A stretch of 64,000 nucleotides of DNA, from NCBI GenBank assembly GCA_965219085.1, contig OZ244720.1:2240001-2304000 (forward strand), given 5' to 3'. Below are positions 28,338-35,252 of this stretch, piece by piece. Origin of the DNA: Dehalococcoidia bacterium (GTDB lineage Bacteria > Chloroflexota > Dehalococcoidia > UBA2979). The notes beneath the pieces were generated by a model. That model did not search any database and was not told the origin of the DNA. It saw only the letters and a list, made by a program, of their open reading frames with translations. A program made the translations under genes and the position numbers. Numbering within the stretch: the first letter of the stretch is position 1; each line of letters starts with the position of its first letter.

Positions 28338-28979
28338 TCAGTCCGTTCGCGTCACGAACGCCTCGCCGTACTGACGGGCGTGCTCCGCGCGCCGCACGTC
28401 GAGGGCGGCGCGCCCCTCTGGTGTATCGAGGCCGTCGAGGAGCATCACGAGCGCATCCTCGTCGTTGTCTTTGTAGTAGCGGCGCAGCCGGCCGTGGCTG
28501 CGGAACCCGTAGCGCGCGTAGAGGTTGACCGCGCGCGCGTTCGTCGTGCGCACCTCGAGCGCGACGCTGTCGAGGTCGGCCGCGACGGCGAGGTCGCACA
28601 CGGCCAGCAGCAGCGCCTGGCCGATGCCGAGCCCGTGGTACTGCGGCGCAACGGCGATGGTCACGAGGTGCAGTTGGTCGTGGGTGAACCATGCGCCGGC
28701 GTAGCCGCCGATCGGCGCGCCGGCCGGGCCGAACGGCAGGCGGTCGGGGAGGAACTGCACCATCCGCGCCCACCAGCCGCGCACCTGCGGCGGCGCCGCG
28801 GCCGACTCCCCGACATCGGCCACGAGGAACTGCGCGAGCCCGTTCAGCAGCTCGCGCCGGAATCCCGAGCGAGGACTCTGCGATCCGTAGGCGTCGCGCT
28901 CGACGCGCACCGCGGCGCGCACGTCGCCGGGACGCATCGGGCGAATGGTGACGGTGCTCGGGCGAGCGAGGGCGCACAT
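28338..28979 (-). CDS. rimI: Ribosomal-protein-alanine N-acetyltransferase RimI (GNAT)
   Basis: LHLVTIAVAPQYHGLGIG, LEVRTTNARAVNLY..YGF...RRYYKDNDEDALVM. Confidence 0.85.
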   Translation of the reverse strand: MCALARPSTVTIRPMRPGDVRAAVRVERDAYGSQSPRSGFRRELLNGLAQFLVADVGESAAAPPQVRGWWARMVQFLPDRLPFGPAGAPIGGYAGAWFTHDQLHLVTIAVAPQYHGLGIGQALLLAVCDLAVAADLDSVALEVRTTNARAVNLYARYGFRSHGRLRRYYKDNDEDALVMLLDGLDTPEGRAALDVRRAEHARQYGEAFVTRTD

Positions 28980-29093
28980 GTGGCGATCGTATCGCGTATG
29001 CGACGAACGTACCGCGCCATCACCACCTCGGCCCTCCCGCGCGCAGCGTCTACCGTCCGCCGCACGCAGACCCGAGTACCGAGGAGGACCACG

Positions 29094-29552
29094 ATGGAAG
29101 ACCACAACGAACTGACGCTGAGCGACGCCGAAGGCGAAGACCTGCCCGACGAGGCGCTCGCCGAACTTGCCGCGATCGGGGACGACGAGCCCAACGCCGA
29201 GGCCACCGCCGAGCACACCTCGGAGGAGATCGCGAGCCTGCGCGCGGACCTCGACGCCGAGCGCGCCGCCCGGCGGACCGCCGTCGCGCGTTACCGCGAT
29301 GCGGTGCTGGCGGCGGAGCCGGCGCTGCCGCCGGAGCTCATCGCCGGCGACAGCCTCGCCGAGGTCGACGCCTCGGTGGAGGCGGCGCGGCGCGCCGTGG
29401 CGCAGATCCGCGAGCGCCTCGCGACCGAGGCGGACGAGGCCGCCGCGCGCGGCTTCCCCGTCGGCGCACCCGGCCGCCGGGAGCCGAGCGCCGAGGGGAT
29501 GTCGGCGACCGAGAAGATCGCGTTCGGACTGGAGCGACGCGCCGCAAGCTGA
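29094..29552 (+). CDS. Putative capsid scaffolding protein
   Basis: Acidic N-terminus, coiled-coil-like middle, C-terminal PVGAP.R...MSATEKIAFGL; directly upstream of the capsid gene; GAGGAGG RBS. Confidence 0.65.
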   Translation: MEDHNELTLSDAEGEDLPDEALAELAAIGDDEPNAEATAEHTSEEIASLRADLDAERAARRTAVARYRDAVLAAEPALPPELIAGDSLAEVDASVEAARRAVAQIRERLATEADEAAARGFPVGAPGRREPSAEGMSATEKIAFGLERRAAS

Positions 29553-29674
29553 GCCCTCGTGCCCTGGCGCCCTGGCGCCCTGGTGCCTTCGCGCCCTCGC
29601 CCGGCCGCAGGTGGCCGGGCGGGGGCCGTCCGGAGCATCCGATTCGTCGATGCGTGCCACTTTGACCTTCGGAC

Positions 29675-29688
29675 AGAACACACGTTCC
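29675..29688. promoter_or_regulatory. LexA-type SOS box upstream of the capsid gene
   Basis: aGAACacacGTTCc just 5' of a -10-like TAGGCT (29691-29696). Confidence 0.65.
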
Positions 29689-29756
29689 CATAGGCTCCCT
29701 CCCACAACGCATCGAAGCAGGCGCGCGGCACGAAACCGCGCGCGGGGAGGGACGCA

Positions 29757-30647
29757 ATGGCGCTGACACTGACCGAGGGGGCCAAGCTCTCCAACGACGT
29801 ACTCCAGCAGGGCGTGATCGAGACCGTGATCAAGGACAGCCCCATCCTGCAACGGCTCCCGTTCATCGAGATCGTCGGGAACGGGCTCACCTACAACCGC
29901 GAGAACGCCGCGGCCACCGCTGCCTTCTACGCCGTCGGGGACACGTGGGCGGAGAGCACGCCGACGTTCACGCAGGTGACCGCCTCGCTCACCATCCTCG
30001 GCGGCGACGCGGACATCGATAACTACATCGCGCGCACCCGCAACAACGTCCAGGACATCGAGGCGGCCGTCGTCGAGCTCAAGGCGAAGGCCGTCCAGCA
30101 GCAGTTCGACGAGACCTTCATCGACGGCGACGCCGACACCAACTCGAAGGCCTTCAACGGCATCGACGAGCTGTGCGCCGCCGGCCAGACCACCTCGATG
30201 GGCAACAACGGCGCGAAGCTCACCCTCGACAAGCTCGACGAGCTGGTGGACCTCGTGCGTGGCGGGAAGCCGGAGATGCTGCTCATGTCGCGTCGCTCGC
30301 GGCGCACGCTGAACAGCCTCGCGCGCGCCGCGGGCTCGGGCGTGGTGGAGCACGACCGCGACGAGTTCGGCCGCATGGTCGCGTACTACGACGGCATCCC
30401 GATCGGGGTGAGCGACTACATCAAGGACACCCAGAGCCGGGGCACGGCGCGCAACACTTCGGTGATCTACGCGCTGCAGTTCGGCGAGGGCGCCGTCGCG
30501 GGGCTCACCGCGCCCGGCGGCGTGACCATCGAGCGCGTCGGCGCGCTGGAGACGAAGGACGCCACGCGCGTGCGCGTGAAGTGGTACGTCTCCGTCGCGC
30601 TCTTCAACGAACTCAAGCTCGCGAAGCTCACCGGCGTGCAGGCCTAA
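29757..30647 (+). CDS. Phage major capsid protein (HK97-fold type)
   Basis: MALTL.E.AKL...GVIETVIKDSPILQRLPF, LTILGGDADID, FIDGDADTNSKAFNGI, LTLDKLDEL, YDGIPI, RVKWYVSVA. Confidence 0.85.
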   Translation: MALTLTEGAKLSNDVLQQGVIETVIKDSPILQRLPFIEIVGNGLTYNRENAAATAAFYAVGDTWAESTPTFTQVTASLTILGGDADIDNYIARTRNNVQDIEAAVVELKAKAVQQQFDETFIDGDADTNSKAFNGIDELCAAGQTTSMGNNGAKLTLDKLDELVDLVRGGKPEMLLMSRRSRRTLNSLARAAGSGVVEHDRDEFGRMVAYYDGIPIGVSDYIKDTQSRGTARNTSVIYALQFGEGAVAGLTAPGGVTIERVGALETKDATRVRVKWYVSVALFNELKLAKLTGVQA

Positions 30648-30686: not shown

Positions 30687-31319
30687 ATGCACCTGACCGA
30701 GATGCGGACCCGCGTCCGCCGCGACCTTCGAGACACGGACCCCGCGGACGAGCGCTGGTCCGACGACGAGCTCGACCGGCACATCGAGCGCGCCGTGCGC
30801 GAGCTCTCGCTCGGCGCGCCCGTCGAGGCGGTCGCGACGCTCACGACGGCTGCCGGCAGCCGCGACCTCGACGTGTCGGCGCTCGCCAGCCGCGTCTCGA
30901 TCGACGCGGTCGAGTATCCGGCGGGGCAATACCCGCCGGCGTTCGCGGTGTTCTCGTCATGGGGCGACACGCTCACGCTGGTCGTCGACCGGGCGCCGCA
31001 CGCGGGCGAGCGCGCGACCGTCTCCTACTCGAAGCTCCACACCCTGACCGACGACGCCTCGACGCTGCCTGCGGCCCTCGAGGAGATCGTCGCGACGGGC
31101 GCGGGTGGGTACGCCGCGCTGGAGTGGGCCTCGTTCGCCACGAACCGCGTCAACGCGGGCGGGACGGACACCTGGCGGCACTATCACATCTGGGCGCAGG
31201 AGCGCCTCGCCGCCTTCGCACGCGCGCTCGCCAAGCACGGGCGCGAGCGGCGGGTGCGGTCGCGCCAGCTCTACCGGCCCGCGGGCGACGCCGTTGGCGC
31301 GCCCGCCCCGGGCGGGTAG
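30687..31319 (+). CDS. Putative head-tail adaptor/connector-like protein
   Basis: MHLTEMRTRVRRDLRD....RWSDDELDRHIERAV resembles adaptor N-termini; follows the capsid gene. Confidence 0.55.
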   Translation: MHLTEMRTRVRRDLRDTDPADERWSDDELDRHIERAVRELSLGAPVEAVATLTTAAGSRDLDVSALASRVSIDAVEYPAGQYPPAFAVFSSWGDTLTLVVDRAPHAGERATVSYSKLHTLTDDASTLPAALEEIVATGAGGYAALEWASFATNRVNAGGTDTWRHYHIWAQERLAAFARALAKHGRERRVRSRQLYRPAGDAVGAPAPGG

Positions 31320-31325
31320 CCCGCG

Positions 31326-33302
31326 ATGCGCGGGCTCACACCCACGCTCGACGCGGCTCGGCGCTCGCCGAGCGTGCAGCCGTACCTGCGCGTGCAGCTC
31401 CACGACCGCGACGTCGGCTCGCTGCGGCTGCGCTGGCGACGCGTCTACTCGGGCCCCGAGCCCGACGGCCCGTGCGCCGCGGCGGTCGCCGCTGACGGCG
31501 CGCTGCTGCGGGTGCGCATCGACCCCTCGACGGGCGCGCTCACGCGCCAGCGCGTCGCGTCGCCGGGCGCGGTGAGCGACTACGGGGCGTGGACGCCCGT
31601 GGCGACCGTCGCCGTCGGCCCGCGCGTCGGCCTCGCCGCGCGCGGCACGCGCGGCATGATCGCCTCGGTGCGGGCCGATGGCGTGACCGTCGACGTGCGC
31701 GAGAGCACCGACGGCGGCGCGACATTCGGGGCGGCCAGCGTGCTCGCGGTCGCGTCGGGAGTGGTCACCGCGGTTGCATGCTCGATGGCCCCGGACGGGA
31801 CTGCCGCGGTGATCTACGCCGTTGGCGGCGTCGTCTACGCGGTCCGCCGCTTCGGCACCGGGCGCTGGCTCGCGCCGGCTGCGTGGTCGCGCTCGCTCGC
31901 GACGGTGAACGCGCTCGCCGCGTCATTCGAGGTGGACCACAACGTGCTGATCTCCGGCACGAATGCCGCCGGCGACACCGGCGTGTGGTCGACGATCTAC
32001 GGCGCGGGCGGCGCGTACCCCCCGGGGAGGTGGCGGCCGCTGGCCGAGGTGGTCTCGGCCGCCCCGGGCACCCGCACCACGTACCTCGCGAGCGGGACGG
32101 CGAACGTCGACGCGCCGCAGAACGTGTTCGTAGAGTCGTACGCCGGTGGCGGGGCGTACGACCGCGTGCACATCGGGGCGGGCGTGGGAGGCACCGCGTA
32201 CCGGGACCAGCTGTGGCGGAACCCGAGGCCATTCGGTCACGAGTCGCCCCACGGGCTCGCGATCGCGTCCGGGCGCGGCGGCGCCTGGCTGGTCTCGCCC
32301 AGCGCTGTGTGGCACGCGCCGTACCCGGAGCCCGCGGCCGACCTCGGCGCTGACGTGCTCGAGGCGACGCTCATCGAGGGGCTGCGCGGGGGACGGATGC
32401 GCCTGGTGCTGCGCAACGACGACGGGCGGTACGGCCCGGATGCCGCACCGGTCGCCCTCGCGGCGGGTGGCGAACTGCGGCCGGGCCCCGGCTACCTCAC
32501 GAGCGCGGGCGAGGAGTCCTCGGACGGGCGCGCGTTCTGGATCACCACCGTGCGGCGCCGCTACGAGCCCGGCGGCTCGACCGTCGAGATCGAGGCAGTC
32601 GACGGCTGGGGGTTGCTCGACGCGTGGACCGCTCCGCGCCAGTTCGTGTGGGCGGCGGGCGAGGCGAGCGCGTCGAGGGTGCTCACGGGGGTCATGCAGC
32701 ATGCAGGCGTACGGCTCGCAAGCGGCAGCTCGAGCGTCGAGTCCGCGACGTTGCGGCCGGCGTTCACGATGCGCGCAGGCGAGCGCGGCTCGACCGCGGT
32801 CCGGCGGCTCCTCGCGATGCTGCCCGACGAGGTGATCATGCGTGACCACTGGGCGTTCCTGGCCGAACCAGCCGCGAACGACGCGCCCGTGGCCAGTTTT
32901 GGAGACGACGACCCCCTCGTCCGCATCACCGTGGAGTCGGGCGCCCCTGCCACCGGATGGGCGCGCATCTTTGGCGCGGGCGTGCTGGCCGAGGCCGTCC
33001 ACGACGACGCGCTCGCCGAGGGTGGCGGCACGGCCATCGTCGTCGACGGGAACGTCGACGCGCAGGCGCGCGCCGACGCCCGCGCGGACGCAGTGCTGCG
33101 CCGTTCGCAGCTGGCTCTCGGGCGCGGGGAGGTGGTCGTGCGGCCGCACCCGGGCCTCGAGGTCGGCGACGTGGTCGCGATCGCCTCGAAGCGCGCGGGA
33201 CTCGTCGAGGCGCGGTTCCGCGCGTCCGGGCTGCACCTTCGCTACGTGCGCGGCGGCCGGCGCGCGGTCTACGAGCAGCGCATCGCGCTCAGCGACGTGT
33301 AG
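31326..33302 (+). CDS. Putative virion structural protein (beta-rich N-half with Asp-box, hub-like C-half)
   Basis: ESTDGGATF Asp-box; C-terminal PHPGLEVGDVVAI; tight operon spacing. Confidence 0.5.
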   Translation: MRGLTPTLDAARRSPSVQPYLRVQLHDRDVGSLRLRWRRVYSGPEPDGPCAAAVAADGALLRVRIDPSTGALTRQRVASPGAVSDYGAWTPVATVAVGPRVGLAARGTRGMIASVRADGVTVDVRESTDGGATFGAASVLAVASGVVTAVACSMAPDGTAAVIYAVGGVVYAVRRFGTGRWLAPAAWSRSLATVNALAASFEVDHNVLISGTNAAGDTGVWSTIYGAGGAYPPGRWRPLAEVVSAAPGTRTTYLASGTANVDAPQNVFVESYAGGGAYDRVHIGAGVGGTAYRDQLWRNPRPFGHESPHGLAIASGRGGAWLVSPSAVWHAPYPEPAADLGADVLEATLIEGLRGGRMRLVLRNDDGRYGPDAAPVALAAGGELRPGPGYLTSAGEESSDGRAFWITTVRRRYEPGGSTVEIEAVDGWGLLDAWTAPRQFVWAAGEASASRVLTGVMQHAGVRLASGSSSVESATLRPAFTMRAGERGSTAVRRLLAMLPDEVIMRDHWAFLAEPAANDAPVASFGDDDPLVRITVESGAPATGWARIFGAGVLAEAVHDDALAEGGGTAIVVDGNVDAQARADARADAVLRRSQLALGRGEVVVRPHPGLEVGDVVAIASKRAGLVEARFRASGLHLRYVRGGRRAVYEQRIALSDV

Positions 33303-33311
33303 GAGGCCCCG

Positions 33312-33518
33312 ATGATCGAACGCGCCACCCTCGAAGCCTTCGACGCGGCGACGCACCTAGCGACCGTGCGGTTCGCCGGCTCACTCACCTCGGTGGTGCG
33401 CGGCGTCCCCGTCTCGCGCGCCATCCCGGCCGCCGAGCTGGTCACGGGCCGGCGGGTGGCGGTGGCCCTGTTCGACCCCGGCCACCCCCTCGATGCGATG
33501 GTCGTGGGGGTGCACTGA
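33312..33518 (+). CDS. Small beta-strand protein, possible OB-fold spike-like component
   Basis: AGGAGG RBS; MIERATLEAFDAATHLATVRF...GRRVAVALFD. Confidence 0.55.
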   Translation: MIERATLEAFDAATHLATVRFAGSLTSVVRGVPVSRAIPAAELVTGRRVAVALFDPGHPLDAMVVGVH

Positions 33519-33527
33519 CCGACCTGG

Positions 33528-34604
33528 CTACGGCGCGGTGTCACCCTCAAACAGCGTGGGCTGCGCGCCATTCGACCCGGCCGAGGGCTCCTCGGCGGCG
33601 TGGTTGTAGGCCATACCGAGGTGGTCGTAGGCGAAGCGGGACGCCACGCGCCCGCGCGGGGTGCGCTGCAGGAAGCCGATCTTGAGCAGGTACGGCTCGT
33701 ACACGTCCATGATCGTGTCGGGCTCCTCGGACACCGCCGCGGCCAGCGTCTCGAGGCCGGCCGGCCCGCCCCCGAAGCGGTCCACGAGCACACGCAGCAA
33801 CTCGCGGTCCATCGCATCCAGCCCCAACTCGTCGATCTCCAACTGCGCCAGCGCCTCGTCGGCGACCGCGGCGGTGATGACGCCGTCCGCGCGCACCTCG
33901 GCGTAGTCACGCACGCGCCGCAGCAGGCGGTTGGCGACACGCGCAGTCCCGCGCGAGCGCCGCGCGATGCCCTCCACGCCGCCGTCGTCGATGGCGCAGC
34001 CGATCACGGCCGCCGAGCGCTCGACGATGCGCGCGAGCGCCTGCTCATCGTAGAAGTCGAGCCGCCACGTCGCGCCGAAGCGCTCGCGCAGGGGCTGGGA
34101 GACGAGGGCGTAGCGCGTCGTGGCGCCGATCAGCGTGAAGCGGTTGAGCTTGAGCCGCACATCGCGCGCCTTCGGCCCGGAGCCGAGGATGATGTCGAGC
34201 GCCCAGTCCTCCATCGCCGGGTACAGGATCTCCTCGACGGGCCGCGGGAGCCGATGCACCTCGTCGATGAACAGCACGTCGCCGGACTGCAGGCTCGTGA
34301 GCACCGCGGCGAGGTCGCCGGCGCGCTCGATGGCGGGGCCCGAGGTGACGCGGATCGAGACGCCCATCTCGGAGGCGATGATCATCGCGAGCGTCGTCTT
34401 GCCGAGGCCCGGCGGCCCGTGGATGAGGACGTGGTCGAGCGGCTCGCCACGCGCGAGCGCCGCCTCGATGCCGATCCGCAGCGACGCCTTGACGGTGTCC
34501 TGGCCGAAGTACTCGTCGAGCCGCCGTGGACGCAGCGAGGGTTCGACCGTCACGTCGCCCGGAGTTTGCGTTCGCGCCAGCGGACCGCGTTGCGTGTCGT
34601 TCAC
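33528..34604 (-). CDS. ruvB: Holliday junction branch migration helicase RuvB
   Basis: [50 protein letters not shown]. Confidence 0.97.
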
Positions 34605-34660
34605 GCCTGTCCTCGATCGCACGGCTCTCTGCCGCGCTCCCCACCGAGGCGTCAGTATAG

Positions 34661-34674
34661 CGAACGTGCGTTCG
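34661..34674. promoter_or_regulatory. LexA SOS box upstream of ruvB
   Basis: CGAACgtgcGTTCG adjacent to a minus-strand -10-like TATACT (34654-34659). Confidence 0.8.
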
Positions 34675-34697: not shown

Positions 34698-35252
34698 TCA
34701 GTCTTGCTGAGGATTGCTATGGACGCTCTCGAGGGTCGTCGTGGAGGGAAGGGACATCGTCTCGATGATCAGTTGGCAGATTCTTTGGCCTGGATACAAT
34801 CTCAGCGTGAATGGCCCGGCATTAGTGAGTTCGAGTTGCAGGCGCTCGTGGAACGTCGGATGCACAGTGGGAGCCGACTGATGGACGGAGAGGCCGAGCC
34901 GTGCTGGCGTACTCCGTCCCTCAACACGAGCAGCCAGGAAGTTCGGGAGGCCAATAGTTTCGCGTGTCCAAGCGAGCGCGAATTCGCCGGGCCGCAACGG
35001 AAAGGAGTCTCCCTCCTCGATCTCCGTGACCACACTGAAGTCTCGCAGGGCGTCCATCACGGCTCGCGAATCACGCGTGTCAATCGATGTCTCTGCTGCC
35101 TTCCCACCAGGGACGACCACCGTCTGGAAGTCGTTGGCAAGCGTCAGATCGATGGTCGAGGGCGATACAGCCTCAAGTGCGGGAACTGGGTCGATGATCA
35201 GACGCTCTGACCTGATCAGCGACCAAATCTCTTGATCGGACAGGATCGCCAT
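34698..35252 (-). CDS. dcd: dCTP deaminase (trimeric dUTPase fold)
   Basis: ILSDQEI, SPSTIDLTL, LRPGEFALAWTRE, EGRSTPARLGL, LYPGQRICQL; lower GC than flanks. Confidence 0.85.
   Translation of the reverse strand: MAILSDQEIWSLIRSERLIIDPVPALEAVSPSTIDLTLANDFQTVVVPGGKAAETSIDTRDSRAVMDALRDFSVVTEIEEGDSFPLRPGEFALAWTRETIGLPNFLAARVEGRSTPARLGLSVHQSAPTVHPTFHERLQLELTNAGPFTLRLYPGQRICQLIIETMSLPSTTTLESVHSNPQQD

Follow-up and report, generated by a model that had tools for sequence, protein, structure and literature searches.

A LexA-type operator precedes a phage-like capsid gene in a Dehalococcoidia genome

The gene for an HK97-fold major capsid protein in a Dehalococcoidia bacterium is preceded by a perfect GAAC-N4-GTTC palindrome, and the identical 12-mer stands in front of a DNA-packaging operon about 600 kb away on the same chromosome. 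Both the palindrome and the capsid gene lie in a 64,000-nt stretch of DNA, referred to below as the window, from a genome (G000) of 3.31 Mb and 69.8% GC that is represented by a single contig. The analysis establishes the motif, the regulon in which it occurs, the gene content of the two loci, their vertical inheritance under purifying selection and the unequal conservation of the two operators. The host LexA protein probably binds both operators, and DNA damage would then release ruvB, recA and the mutasome and, with them, the synthesis of heads, a stub tail and the packaging motor. Since a LexA-type site stands before a capsid gene that is inherited with the host, it is probably the cell itself that switches on particle production upon DNA damage.

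The capsid module

The capsid module consists of five plus-strand genes located between host genes: a scaffold, the capsid, an adaptor, a hub with a propeller and a 68-residue protein. The scaffold-like protein (29094-29552) is an acidic, helical polypeptide of 152 residues with no family match; its reading frame is supported by the codon-position GC content and by its location upstream of the capsid gene in relatives. A longer, 390-residue open reading frame at 28380-29552 was rejected as mostly an artefact, as the codon-position GC resolves it into a minus-strand GNAT acetyltransferase gene (28338-28937) and the scaffold gene starting at 29094. The capsid protein (29757-30647) has 296 residues and matches PF05065 (2.6e-12) and phrog_212 (1.5e-72). 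It is followed by a head-to-tail adaptor-like protein of 210 residues (30687-31319), syntenic in relatives, that matches PF24175 (SU10_adaptor, 1.5e-8) over positions 1-189 of 194. The last two genes encode a tail-tip protein of 658 residues (31326-33302) and the conserved 68-residue protein, p68 (33312-33518), which always follows the hub gene, has dN/dS values of 0.07-0.30 and returned no family match.

The 658-residue protein contains an N-terminal β-propeller with an Asp-box and a C-terminal hub of the gp27/Mu gp44/VgrG type. Its AlphaFold2 model has a mean pLDDT of 92.7, and Foldseek aligns it with baseplate hubs (7b5h_AJ, 1.4e-16; 3d37_A, TMt 0.71). In these comparisons, the C-terminal domain matches hub and central-spike proteins, including Mu gp44, T4 gp27, VgrG and the hubs of contractile injection systems. 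A podovirus nozzle was considered for this protein and is unsupported, given that the C-terminal half matches the baseplate-hub folds. No tape-measure or long tail tube gene was found, and the tail comprises only the adaptor and the hub-propeller protein. Searches of the adaptor and terminase sequences against solved structures yielded nothing useful.

Upstream, the module is flanked by genes for an ABC transporter, ClpS, an AMP-binding enzyme and the GNAT acetyltransferase, and downstream by ruvB and dcd; Pfam and PHROGs searches of these neighbours returned host genes only. The G+C content dips to 64% between 34001 and 36000 over dcd (34698-35252, minus strand), which was left uncalled by the codon model. 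A dcd-like open reading frame also sits between the portal and scaffold genes in the contiguous cluster of one relative (L176), which raises the possibility that dcd has long been next to the module.

Two other identities for the module were examined and discarded. A prophage, whether intact or decaying, does not fit a locus with no integrase, attachment sites or repressor in its flanks, a fixed site across the genus, and intact genes under constraint. An encapsulin nanocompartment is at odds with a cognate portal and terminase that are conserved and, in other families, encoded beside the scaffold and capsid; nor was there a Pfam match to an encapsulin family.

Inheritance and selection

Of 61 related genomes, 39 have the capsid gene, nearly always as a single intact copy, and 46 have the terminase. 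Within the genus, the capsid gene occurs in 17 of the 18 genomes other than G000 and the terminase in all 18. One relative (G056) has five terminase-like copies and one capsid match, which may mean that other elements of its lineage, possibly active ones, use this terminase family too. Across the genus the five module genes are syntenic between GNAT and ruvB, and the module adjoins ruvB in other genera and in one other family as well.

Sequence identities were compared with those of two host proteins. In the near clade of the genus, the capsid is ~93% identical, RecA 91% and RuvB 91-94%; in the far clade all three stand at 82%; and in other genera the values are 72-76%, 77-80% and 72-82%, respectively. 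Capsid identity tracks that of RecA and RuvB, and the module evolves at their pace. The dN/dS ratios are 0.07-0.54 for all module genes (0.20-0.33 for the capsid) and 0.10-0.29 for ruvB. Synteny, presence and ratios below 0.55 show vertical inheritance of the module under purifying selection within the host clade.

Beyond the genus, relatives of the capsid occur on at least 596 contigs of species-representative genomes; 80 were kept, almost all of them labelled Dehalococcoidia or Chloroflexota. When the phylum was sampled evenly, the capsid turned up in 46 of 401 genomes (G000, 24 more from its class and 21 from different classes). All six closed genomes of 1.7-1.9 Mb from genus g45 have it. 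Isolated phages contributed 277 capsid-matching records, 274 of which match over at least 80% of the length. The nearest, from Pseudomonas phage PaMx28, Clostridium phage vB_CtyS-FA70 and Xanthomonas phages, belong to the same capsid family, but none of the records exceeds 41% identity, and the chromosomal copies of Chloroflexota are 51-97% identical. The module is a set of phage-derived, vertically inherited genes flanked by host genes and neither a phage nor a prophage.

The capsid-proximal operator and its promoter

The initial annotation had placed a GAAC-N4-GTTC palindrome upstream of the capsid gene, and this is confirmed: GAACACACGTTC, at 29676-29687, matches at all eight arm positions and ends 69 nt 5' of the capsid ATG (29757). 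With one flanking base on either side the site reads aGAACacacGTTCc (29675-29688). Three nucleotides past the box lies the hexamer TAGGCT (29691-29696, plus strand), a predicted -10 element that reads TAGCCT in most relatives. The genus alignment shows the hexamer to be conserved, even in the clade that lacks the box. Sixteen nucleotides 5' of TAGGCT, TTCGGA (29669-29674, plus strand) is a possible weak -35 element, at which relatives have CTTCGC or TTCGCG. A sigma-70 consensus scan of 28900-29800 called no promoter and picked up neither TTCGGA nor TAGGCT. The hexamers of this putative promoter, TTCGGA-N16-TAGGCT, are weak, and we infer it solely from conservation. The box is also atypical in its flanks, with CC rather than TA after GTTC, and the -10 element is 3 nt farther from it than at recA or the packaging operon.

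Between the scaffold and capsid genes, 3' of the scaffold stop codon, the plus strand at 29593-29626 can form a GC-rich hairpin of 14 bp that is terminator-like but has no T run. The MFE structure and the centroid structure both contain it, with a whole-stretch z-score of only -0.95, and the equivalent position in one relative (L032) holds a different, perfect hairpin. Immediately after the scaffold stop codon and 5' of the hairpin, positions 29556-29592 contain three tandem GCGCCCTG-like units. In the region upstream of the scaffold gene, no conserved-position site with one mismatch or fewer was found in any of nine genus loci (9/9). It had been proposed that the capsid promoter lies downstream of the scaffold gene and uncouples the expression of the two. 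The two separate upstream regions, the lack of a scaffold box in the nine loci and the intervening hairpin agree with this; the putative promoter itself was not called by the sigma-70 scan.

The second perfect palindrome of the window, GAACGTGCGTTC (34662-34673), lies 5' of ruvB, a minus-strand gene at 33528-34553 with an alternative start at 34622 that gives a longer reading frame; the product contains the RuvB_N, AAA_lid_4 and RuvB_C domains. With its flanking bases the site reads cGAACgtgcGTTCg (34661-34674). Read on the minus strand, it continues as GAACGCACGTTC-GC-TATACT, placing the box 2 nt before the TATACT hexamer (34659-34654). A perfect box occurs upstream of ruvB, the gene suggested at the outset as an internal control, in 15 of the 20 loci from metagenome-assembled genomes (MAGs) that have a ruvB match.

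GAAC-N4-GTTC as a LexA operator of the genome

The palindrome GAAC-N4-GTTC is the LexA motif of Dehalococcoides. It is likewise the motif of Firmicutes and Actinobacteria, according to PMC3323433. The genome encodes a canonical LexA with a DNA-binding domain (LexA_DNA_bind, PF01726) and a peptidase domain (Peptidase_S24, PF00717). Perfect boxes precede recA, a recQ-like helicase, an imuB-like Y-family polymerase, a dnaE2-like polymerase, ruvB and a DUF5131 gene; further perfect boxes lie 5' of two ThsB-type TIR genes, an Xre-type gene, a LuxR-type gene and the operon of a conjugative element. The recA box is perfect in 30 of 30 loci from relatives, where its usual form is TAGAAC-N4-GTTCTAT. 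At recA, radC and the packaging operon, the promoters share one layout, in which the -35 element is followed after 5-6 nt by the box and then by a -10 element that starts with TA directly after GTTC. Because the same motif is found at recA, recQ, imuB and dnaE2, and at recA throughout the relatives, we take the palindrome with high confidence to be the LexA operator of this lineage. The capsid box thus has the form that the initial annotation ascribed to it.

Imperfect forms also occur at repair promoters. There is no perfect box upstream of lexA, which instead has a one-mismatch GAAC-N4-GTAC ~230 nt upstream (genome positions 1247015-1247026). This site overlaps a second, degenerate copy, and a tract of CGGCGGACGGTA-like repeats comes after it. 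The GCAC form is found at radC, in a promoter of the recA type. Genome-wide, enrichment outside called genes reaches 3.6-fold for the GTAC variants and is not seen for the GCAC variants as a class (28 observed against 26.1 expected).

Occurrence counts alone do not set the capsid site apart. The window holds two perfect sites, those of the capsid gene and ruvB, against an expectation of 0.63, and two or more were seen in 11 of 100 shuffles, so the count in the window is not significant by itself; a search tolerating one mismatch gave 19 sites against 17.25 expected. The whole genome contains 39 perfect sites, close to the Markov expectation of ~31, and chance palindromes therefore do occur. 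Their location is more informative. With genes called by a home-made codon-usage caller that covers 82% of the genome, and expectations taken from a first-order Markov model, 27 perfect sites lie outside called genes (18% of the genome) where 6.7 are expected, 13 of them in intergenic gaps of at most 500 nt (2.26 expected), and 12 lie within called genes (24 expected). Owing to this enrichment outside genes and depletion inside them, an intergenic perfect site is mostly a non-chance one.

A position weight matrix was derived from 26 sites at SOS genes; it did not include those of the capsid gene and the packaging operon. Scored against ~3.3 million positions, the capsid site ranks 24th with 15.4 bits, and all of the top 26 positions fall outside called genes. 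The recA site ranks second (25.3 bits), that of the packaging operon 13th (19.2 bits) and that of ruvB 17th (17.8 bits). The capsid site lies 10 bits below that of recA.

The packaging operon

In distant families, a portal gene (phrog_64) lies directly upstream of the scaffold gene. Its homologue in G000 is found ~600 kb away, at 1664561-1665826, as the last gene of a minus-strand packaging operon (genome positions 1664561-1668646) that encodes p93, p48, p106, the large terminase, p111 and the portal. The portal is supported by matches to PF05133 and phrog_64, and p93 is a small membrane protein. The terminase, of 474 residues, has a weak family match (phrog_7579, 5e-9), and its AlphaFold model (pLDDT 84.3) matches the large terminases of HK97, T4, Sf6 and D6E over the ATPase and nuclease domains. 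Between the terminase and the portal, p111 combines a cysteine cluster with a helix-turn-helix (HTH) and weakly matches a phage late activator family and Sigma70_r4. The operon is flanked by genes for a PDZ protein, an ABC transporter and the HD-like p209; an IS5-type transposase gene lies near the locus and is not part of the operon.

The box of this operon, GTAGAACACACGTTCGTG, is located 50 nt 5' of p93 and is the same 12-mer as the capsid box. In the direction of the operon, the promoter reads TTGGCG-N18-TACGCT, with the box abutting the -10 element at a recA-like spacing. Behind the other LexA boxes of the genome, no further parts of the module were found. In some families, the two loci form one contiguous set, in the order box, p106, terminase, p111, portal, a variable stretch, scaffold, capsid, a second variable stretch, adaptor, hub and p68, with ruvB nearby. 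Only 11 genes of the module and packaging operon recur in the contiguous clusters of other families. The slot between capsid and adaptor is variable, at 1-6 kb, and contains unrelated insertions in L057, L061, L066, L068, L176, L192 and other loci.

The structural genes had been proposed to be wired directly to host LexA instead of to a phage repressor cascade. In favour of this, the box has the LexA form, and no repressor gene was recognised in the capsid module; the packaging operon encodes the unassigned HTH protein p111. The proposal needs amending in two respects: the genes constitute a host-inherited module rather than a phage, with the terminase and portal 600 kb away behind the same box, and the capsid box, which has one mismatch in sister species and is gone from one clade, is less well conserved than that of the packaging operon.

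Across relatives, the packaging box is perfect in 15 of 30 loci, with arms that are invariant and N4 spacers that differ. Besides the near clade of the genus, these loci represent seven further genera and one further family. In the far clade of the genus, six of the seven extended loci have the box with one mismatch (GCAC, GTAC or ATTC), and the seventh lacks it.

Conservation of the capsid operator

The capsid site was compared at its aligned position in 30 loci, G000 included. It is perfect in three, has one mismatch in 12 (mostly GCAC or GTAC) and has two or more mismatches in the remaining 15. The perfect boxes are those of G000, L026 and L044, the last from another genus. L026 belongs with L138 to a 97%-identical copy with a fragmented hub gene on a short contig, in a genome that has its own 80% copy; as a near-identical copy on a short contig, L026 is not independent of G000. 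Within the near clade, the promoter-distal arm of the box reads GCAC or GTAC. Since the operator of these sisters is thus usually imperfect, the box of G000 looks like either a recent C-to-A change or a retention. In the far clade (L034-L042, nine genus loci), the site has been lost while TAGCCT is kept and the genes are intact under purifying selection, so LexA control at the capsid promoter is dispensable.

A wider sample was drawn from the 80 MAG loci, 47 of which have a capsid gene with no scaffold match within 300 nt upstream. Among these 47 Dehalococcoidia loci, 27 have a site with one mismatch or fewer within 150 nt (four perfect, 23 with one mismatch), compared with 18 of 395 random windows from the same loci. 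Most of the sites read G[C/T]AC-N4-GTTCT and are followed by a TA-rich hexamer. Where the scaffold gene is adjacent, only five of 32 loci have a capsid site with one mismatch or fewer, and a perfect box, if there is one, tends to precede the scaffold. In total, 14 perfect boxes were found in 250-nt windows 5' of scaffold or capsid genes, in 13 of the 80 loci; these windows add up to 30.6 kb, and the loci as a whole contain 4.6 sites per 100 kb. Sites with one mismatch or fewer are thus far commoner upstream of these capsid genes than in the control windows; as a perfect palindrome the operator is rare, and in one clade it is gone.

The variation in sister species bears on whether the palindrome of G000 has any regulatory effect. 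In principle, it could have arisen by a chance or neutral change from GCAC to GAAC within a conserved promoter spacer, as sister species have GCAC or GTAC there and ~30 perfect palindromes are expected by chance per genome. However, only ~0.002 are expected in a gap of 204 nt, the functionally linked packaging operon has the same motif, and the dyad is kept across families. We consider a neutral origin the least probable of the explanations weighed here.

Equally, the dyad might be read by a different protein, either a paralogue of 86 residues that consists only of a LexA DNA-binding domain or a factor from the module, in which case the likeness to the SOS box would reflect the shared ancestry of the binding domains. 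Two extra PF01726 matches, lacking the peptidase domain, do occur in duplicated copies of a mobile element, and class-wide the capsid promoters favour a G[C/T]AC distal arm, which recA never does. On the other hand, the 86-residue paralogues reside in those mobile elements, the GTAC and GCAC forms are also seen at lexA and radC, and the box of the packaging operon is canonical and perfect, its flanks and spacing being like those of recA. This makes a separate reader very improbable, and LexA remains the preferred candidate at both loci.

The capsid operator is less stable than the packaging operator, with three versus 15 perfect boxes in 30 loci. As the capsid box has one mismatch in sisters and is gone in one clade, the packaging operon is the better-conserved SOS node. 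This difference would also be expected if LexA acted mainly at the packaging operon and the capsid promoter were weak, late and dependent on an activator, its box being minor or vestigial, with a cascade running from LexA through p111 to the capsid genes. In line with such a cascade, the capsid box is absent from the clade whose packaging box has one mismatch, p111 is a conserved HTH protein with weak activator-family and sigma-factor matches, and the hexamers of the putative capsid promoter are poor. Nevertheless, the capsid box is perfect in G000, and p111 could equally be the small terminase. Moreover, a dyad with one mismatch or fewer stands before the -10 element at the same place in many genera and families, far in excess of the control; its conservation argues for a protein that reads GNAC-N4-GTTC at that spot. 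We regard the cascade as unlikely, though as the strongest of the alternatives, and direct control of both promoters by LexA as the favoured reading. What is new here is the twin 12-mer at loci 600 kb apart, the control at recA (30 of 30) and the graded capsid operator beside a better-kept packaging operator.

Proposed mechanism

In the favoured reading, the palindrome at 29676-29687 would be a host LexA operator within the spacer of a weak promoter that drives the capsid, adaptor, hub and p68 genes. The second operator, the same 12-mer, would control p93, p48, p106, terminase, p111 (HTH) and portal from its position 50 nt upstream. In an undamaged cell, LexA would sit on the capsid, packaging, ruvB, recA, recQ and imuB/dnaE2 promoters. 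DNA damage would then lead to RecA-stimulated self-cleavage of LexA, which would free all of these promoters, and the cell would make heads, stub tail and packaging motor while expressing its recombination and repair genes. The particles would most likely carry host DNA in the fashion of a gene transfer agent (GTA). LexA binding, the capsid promoter, induction by damage and the cargo of the particles are the steps that we infer.

With regard to gene content, phage-derived capsid, portal, terminase and tail genes are present, the flanking genes are those of the host, and there are no integrase, replication or lysogeny genes. A GTA-like role is supported by this gene set, by the lack of integrase, replication and recognised repressor genes, and by the class-wide vertical inheritance. 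Our best reading of the sequences is that the system is probably a domesticated, GTA-like kit for short-tailed particles that is wired into the SOS regulon.

A more far-reaching and tentative version, which we think possible though doubtful, extends this to much of Dehalococcoidia and to scattered other Chloroflexota. There, a minimal short-tailed GTA would be a true member of the SOS regulon beside ruvB, and upon damage chromosomal DNA would be packaged and released for recombinational repair in kin. The co-induced Holliday-junction motor would perhaps clear branched DNA before packaging, and the promoters would be tuned by operator strength, with a perfect box for packaging and a weakened G[C/T]AC box for the capsid.

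If LexA does hold these promoters, DNA damage is directly coupled to DNA-packaging particles in an abundant, mostly uncultured class with no phage regulator in between, a simple regulatory design for a GTA-like system outside Alphaproteobacteria. Mitomycin C or UV would then also be a concrete means of inducing the particles in order to see them. The operator variants, perfect, with one mismatch or lost, represent a natural series on the wiring of a domesticated virus into a host regulon.

Comparison with known systems

Direct control of a viral or plasmid promoter by host LexA is known from Bacillus phage GIL01 and from colicin operons. By analogy, the system described here would likewise be controlled by the host SOS repressor and not by a CI-type repressor of the element itself. 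However, GIL01 and the colicin operons are autonomous phage or plasmid genes, whereas here the genes are a fixed chromosomal set shared by a whole bacterial class.

With the Cheo-type LexA operator of Firmicutes and Actinobacteria (motif in PMC3323433), the sites share the palindrome and, at recA, ruvB and the packaging operon, the location in the promoter spacer near the -10 element. The regulons are also alike in having recA, ruvB, imuB/dnaE2 and recQ under the box. They differ in that capsid and DNA-packaging genes are predicted to be regulated here and in that the distal arm at the capsid is usually G[C/T]AC.

The RcGTA-type agents of Alphaproteobacteria (Rhodobacter capsulatus, Dinoroseobacter and Caulobacter; PMC6473078, PMC9632790 and PMC5026251) similarly consist of phage-derived head, tail and packaging genes with no integrase, replication or lysogeny genes. 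These agents also share vertical inheritance, distribution over several loci, host regulators and a link to SOS or DNA repair. The present system belongs to a different phylum, has no long tail tube or tape-measure gene, and shows predicted LexA-type operators on structural and packaging promoters in contrast to control by CtrA and GafA. It is also known from its genes alone, so that packaging and transfer of DNA would follow by analogy with these agents.

FpGTA of Faecalibacterium prausnitzii, according to its description (PMC12946183), is podovirus-like, comes from outside Alphaproteobacteria and is encoded in two operons ~125 kb apart, a split similar to the one seen here. It has holin, endolysin and tail-fibre genes, whereas in the present system only p93 hints at lysis; the two systems are likened by description. 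The word LexA is absent from that paper. Literature searches on Chloroflexi GTAs, Dehalococcoidia prophage capsids and Dehalogenimonas capsids retrieved no paper on the Chloroflexota element, for the GTA search among the matches listed.

Other SOS-linked sites

Several further boxes of the genome lie next to mobile or defence-like genes. At genome positions 730642-730653 (L007:2501-2512), a perfect box stands 20 nt 5' of the first gene of a conjugative transfer operon, which is followed by a TrbL/VirB6 gene; the box is ~45 nt downstream of a long palindrome. Transfer of this conjugative element may be SOS-controlled. Two neighbouring perfect boxes occur at 2468337 and 2468840 (L014:2501 and 3004), the first 5' of a ThsB-type TIR-domain gene and the second 5' of a 127-residue open reading frame that is TIR-like by eye, and these TIR genes may be defence genes within the SOS regulon. 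The two copies of the mobile element that encode the 86-residue LexA DNA-binding domain with no peptidase are located at about 839866-840045 (L003) and 2638810-2638989 (L002). Each of the 86-residue genes has an Xre-type gene next to it and LexA-type boxes close by, and their products could compete with LexA or mimic it.
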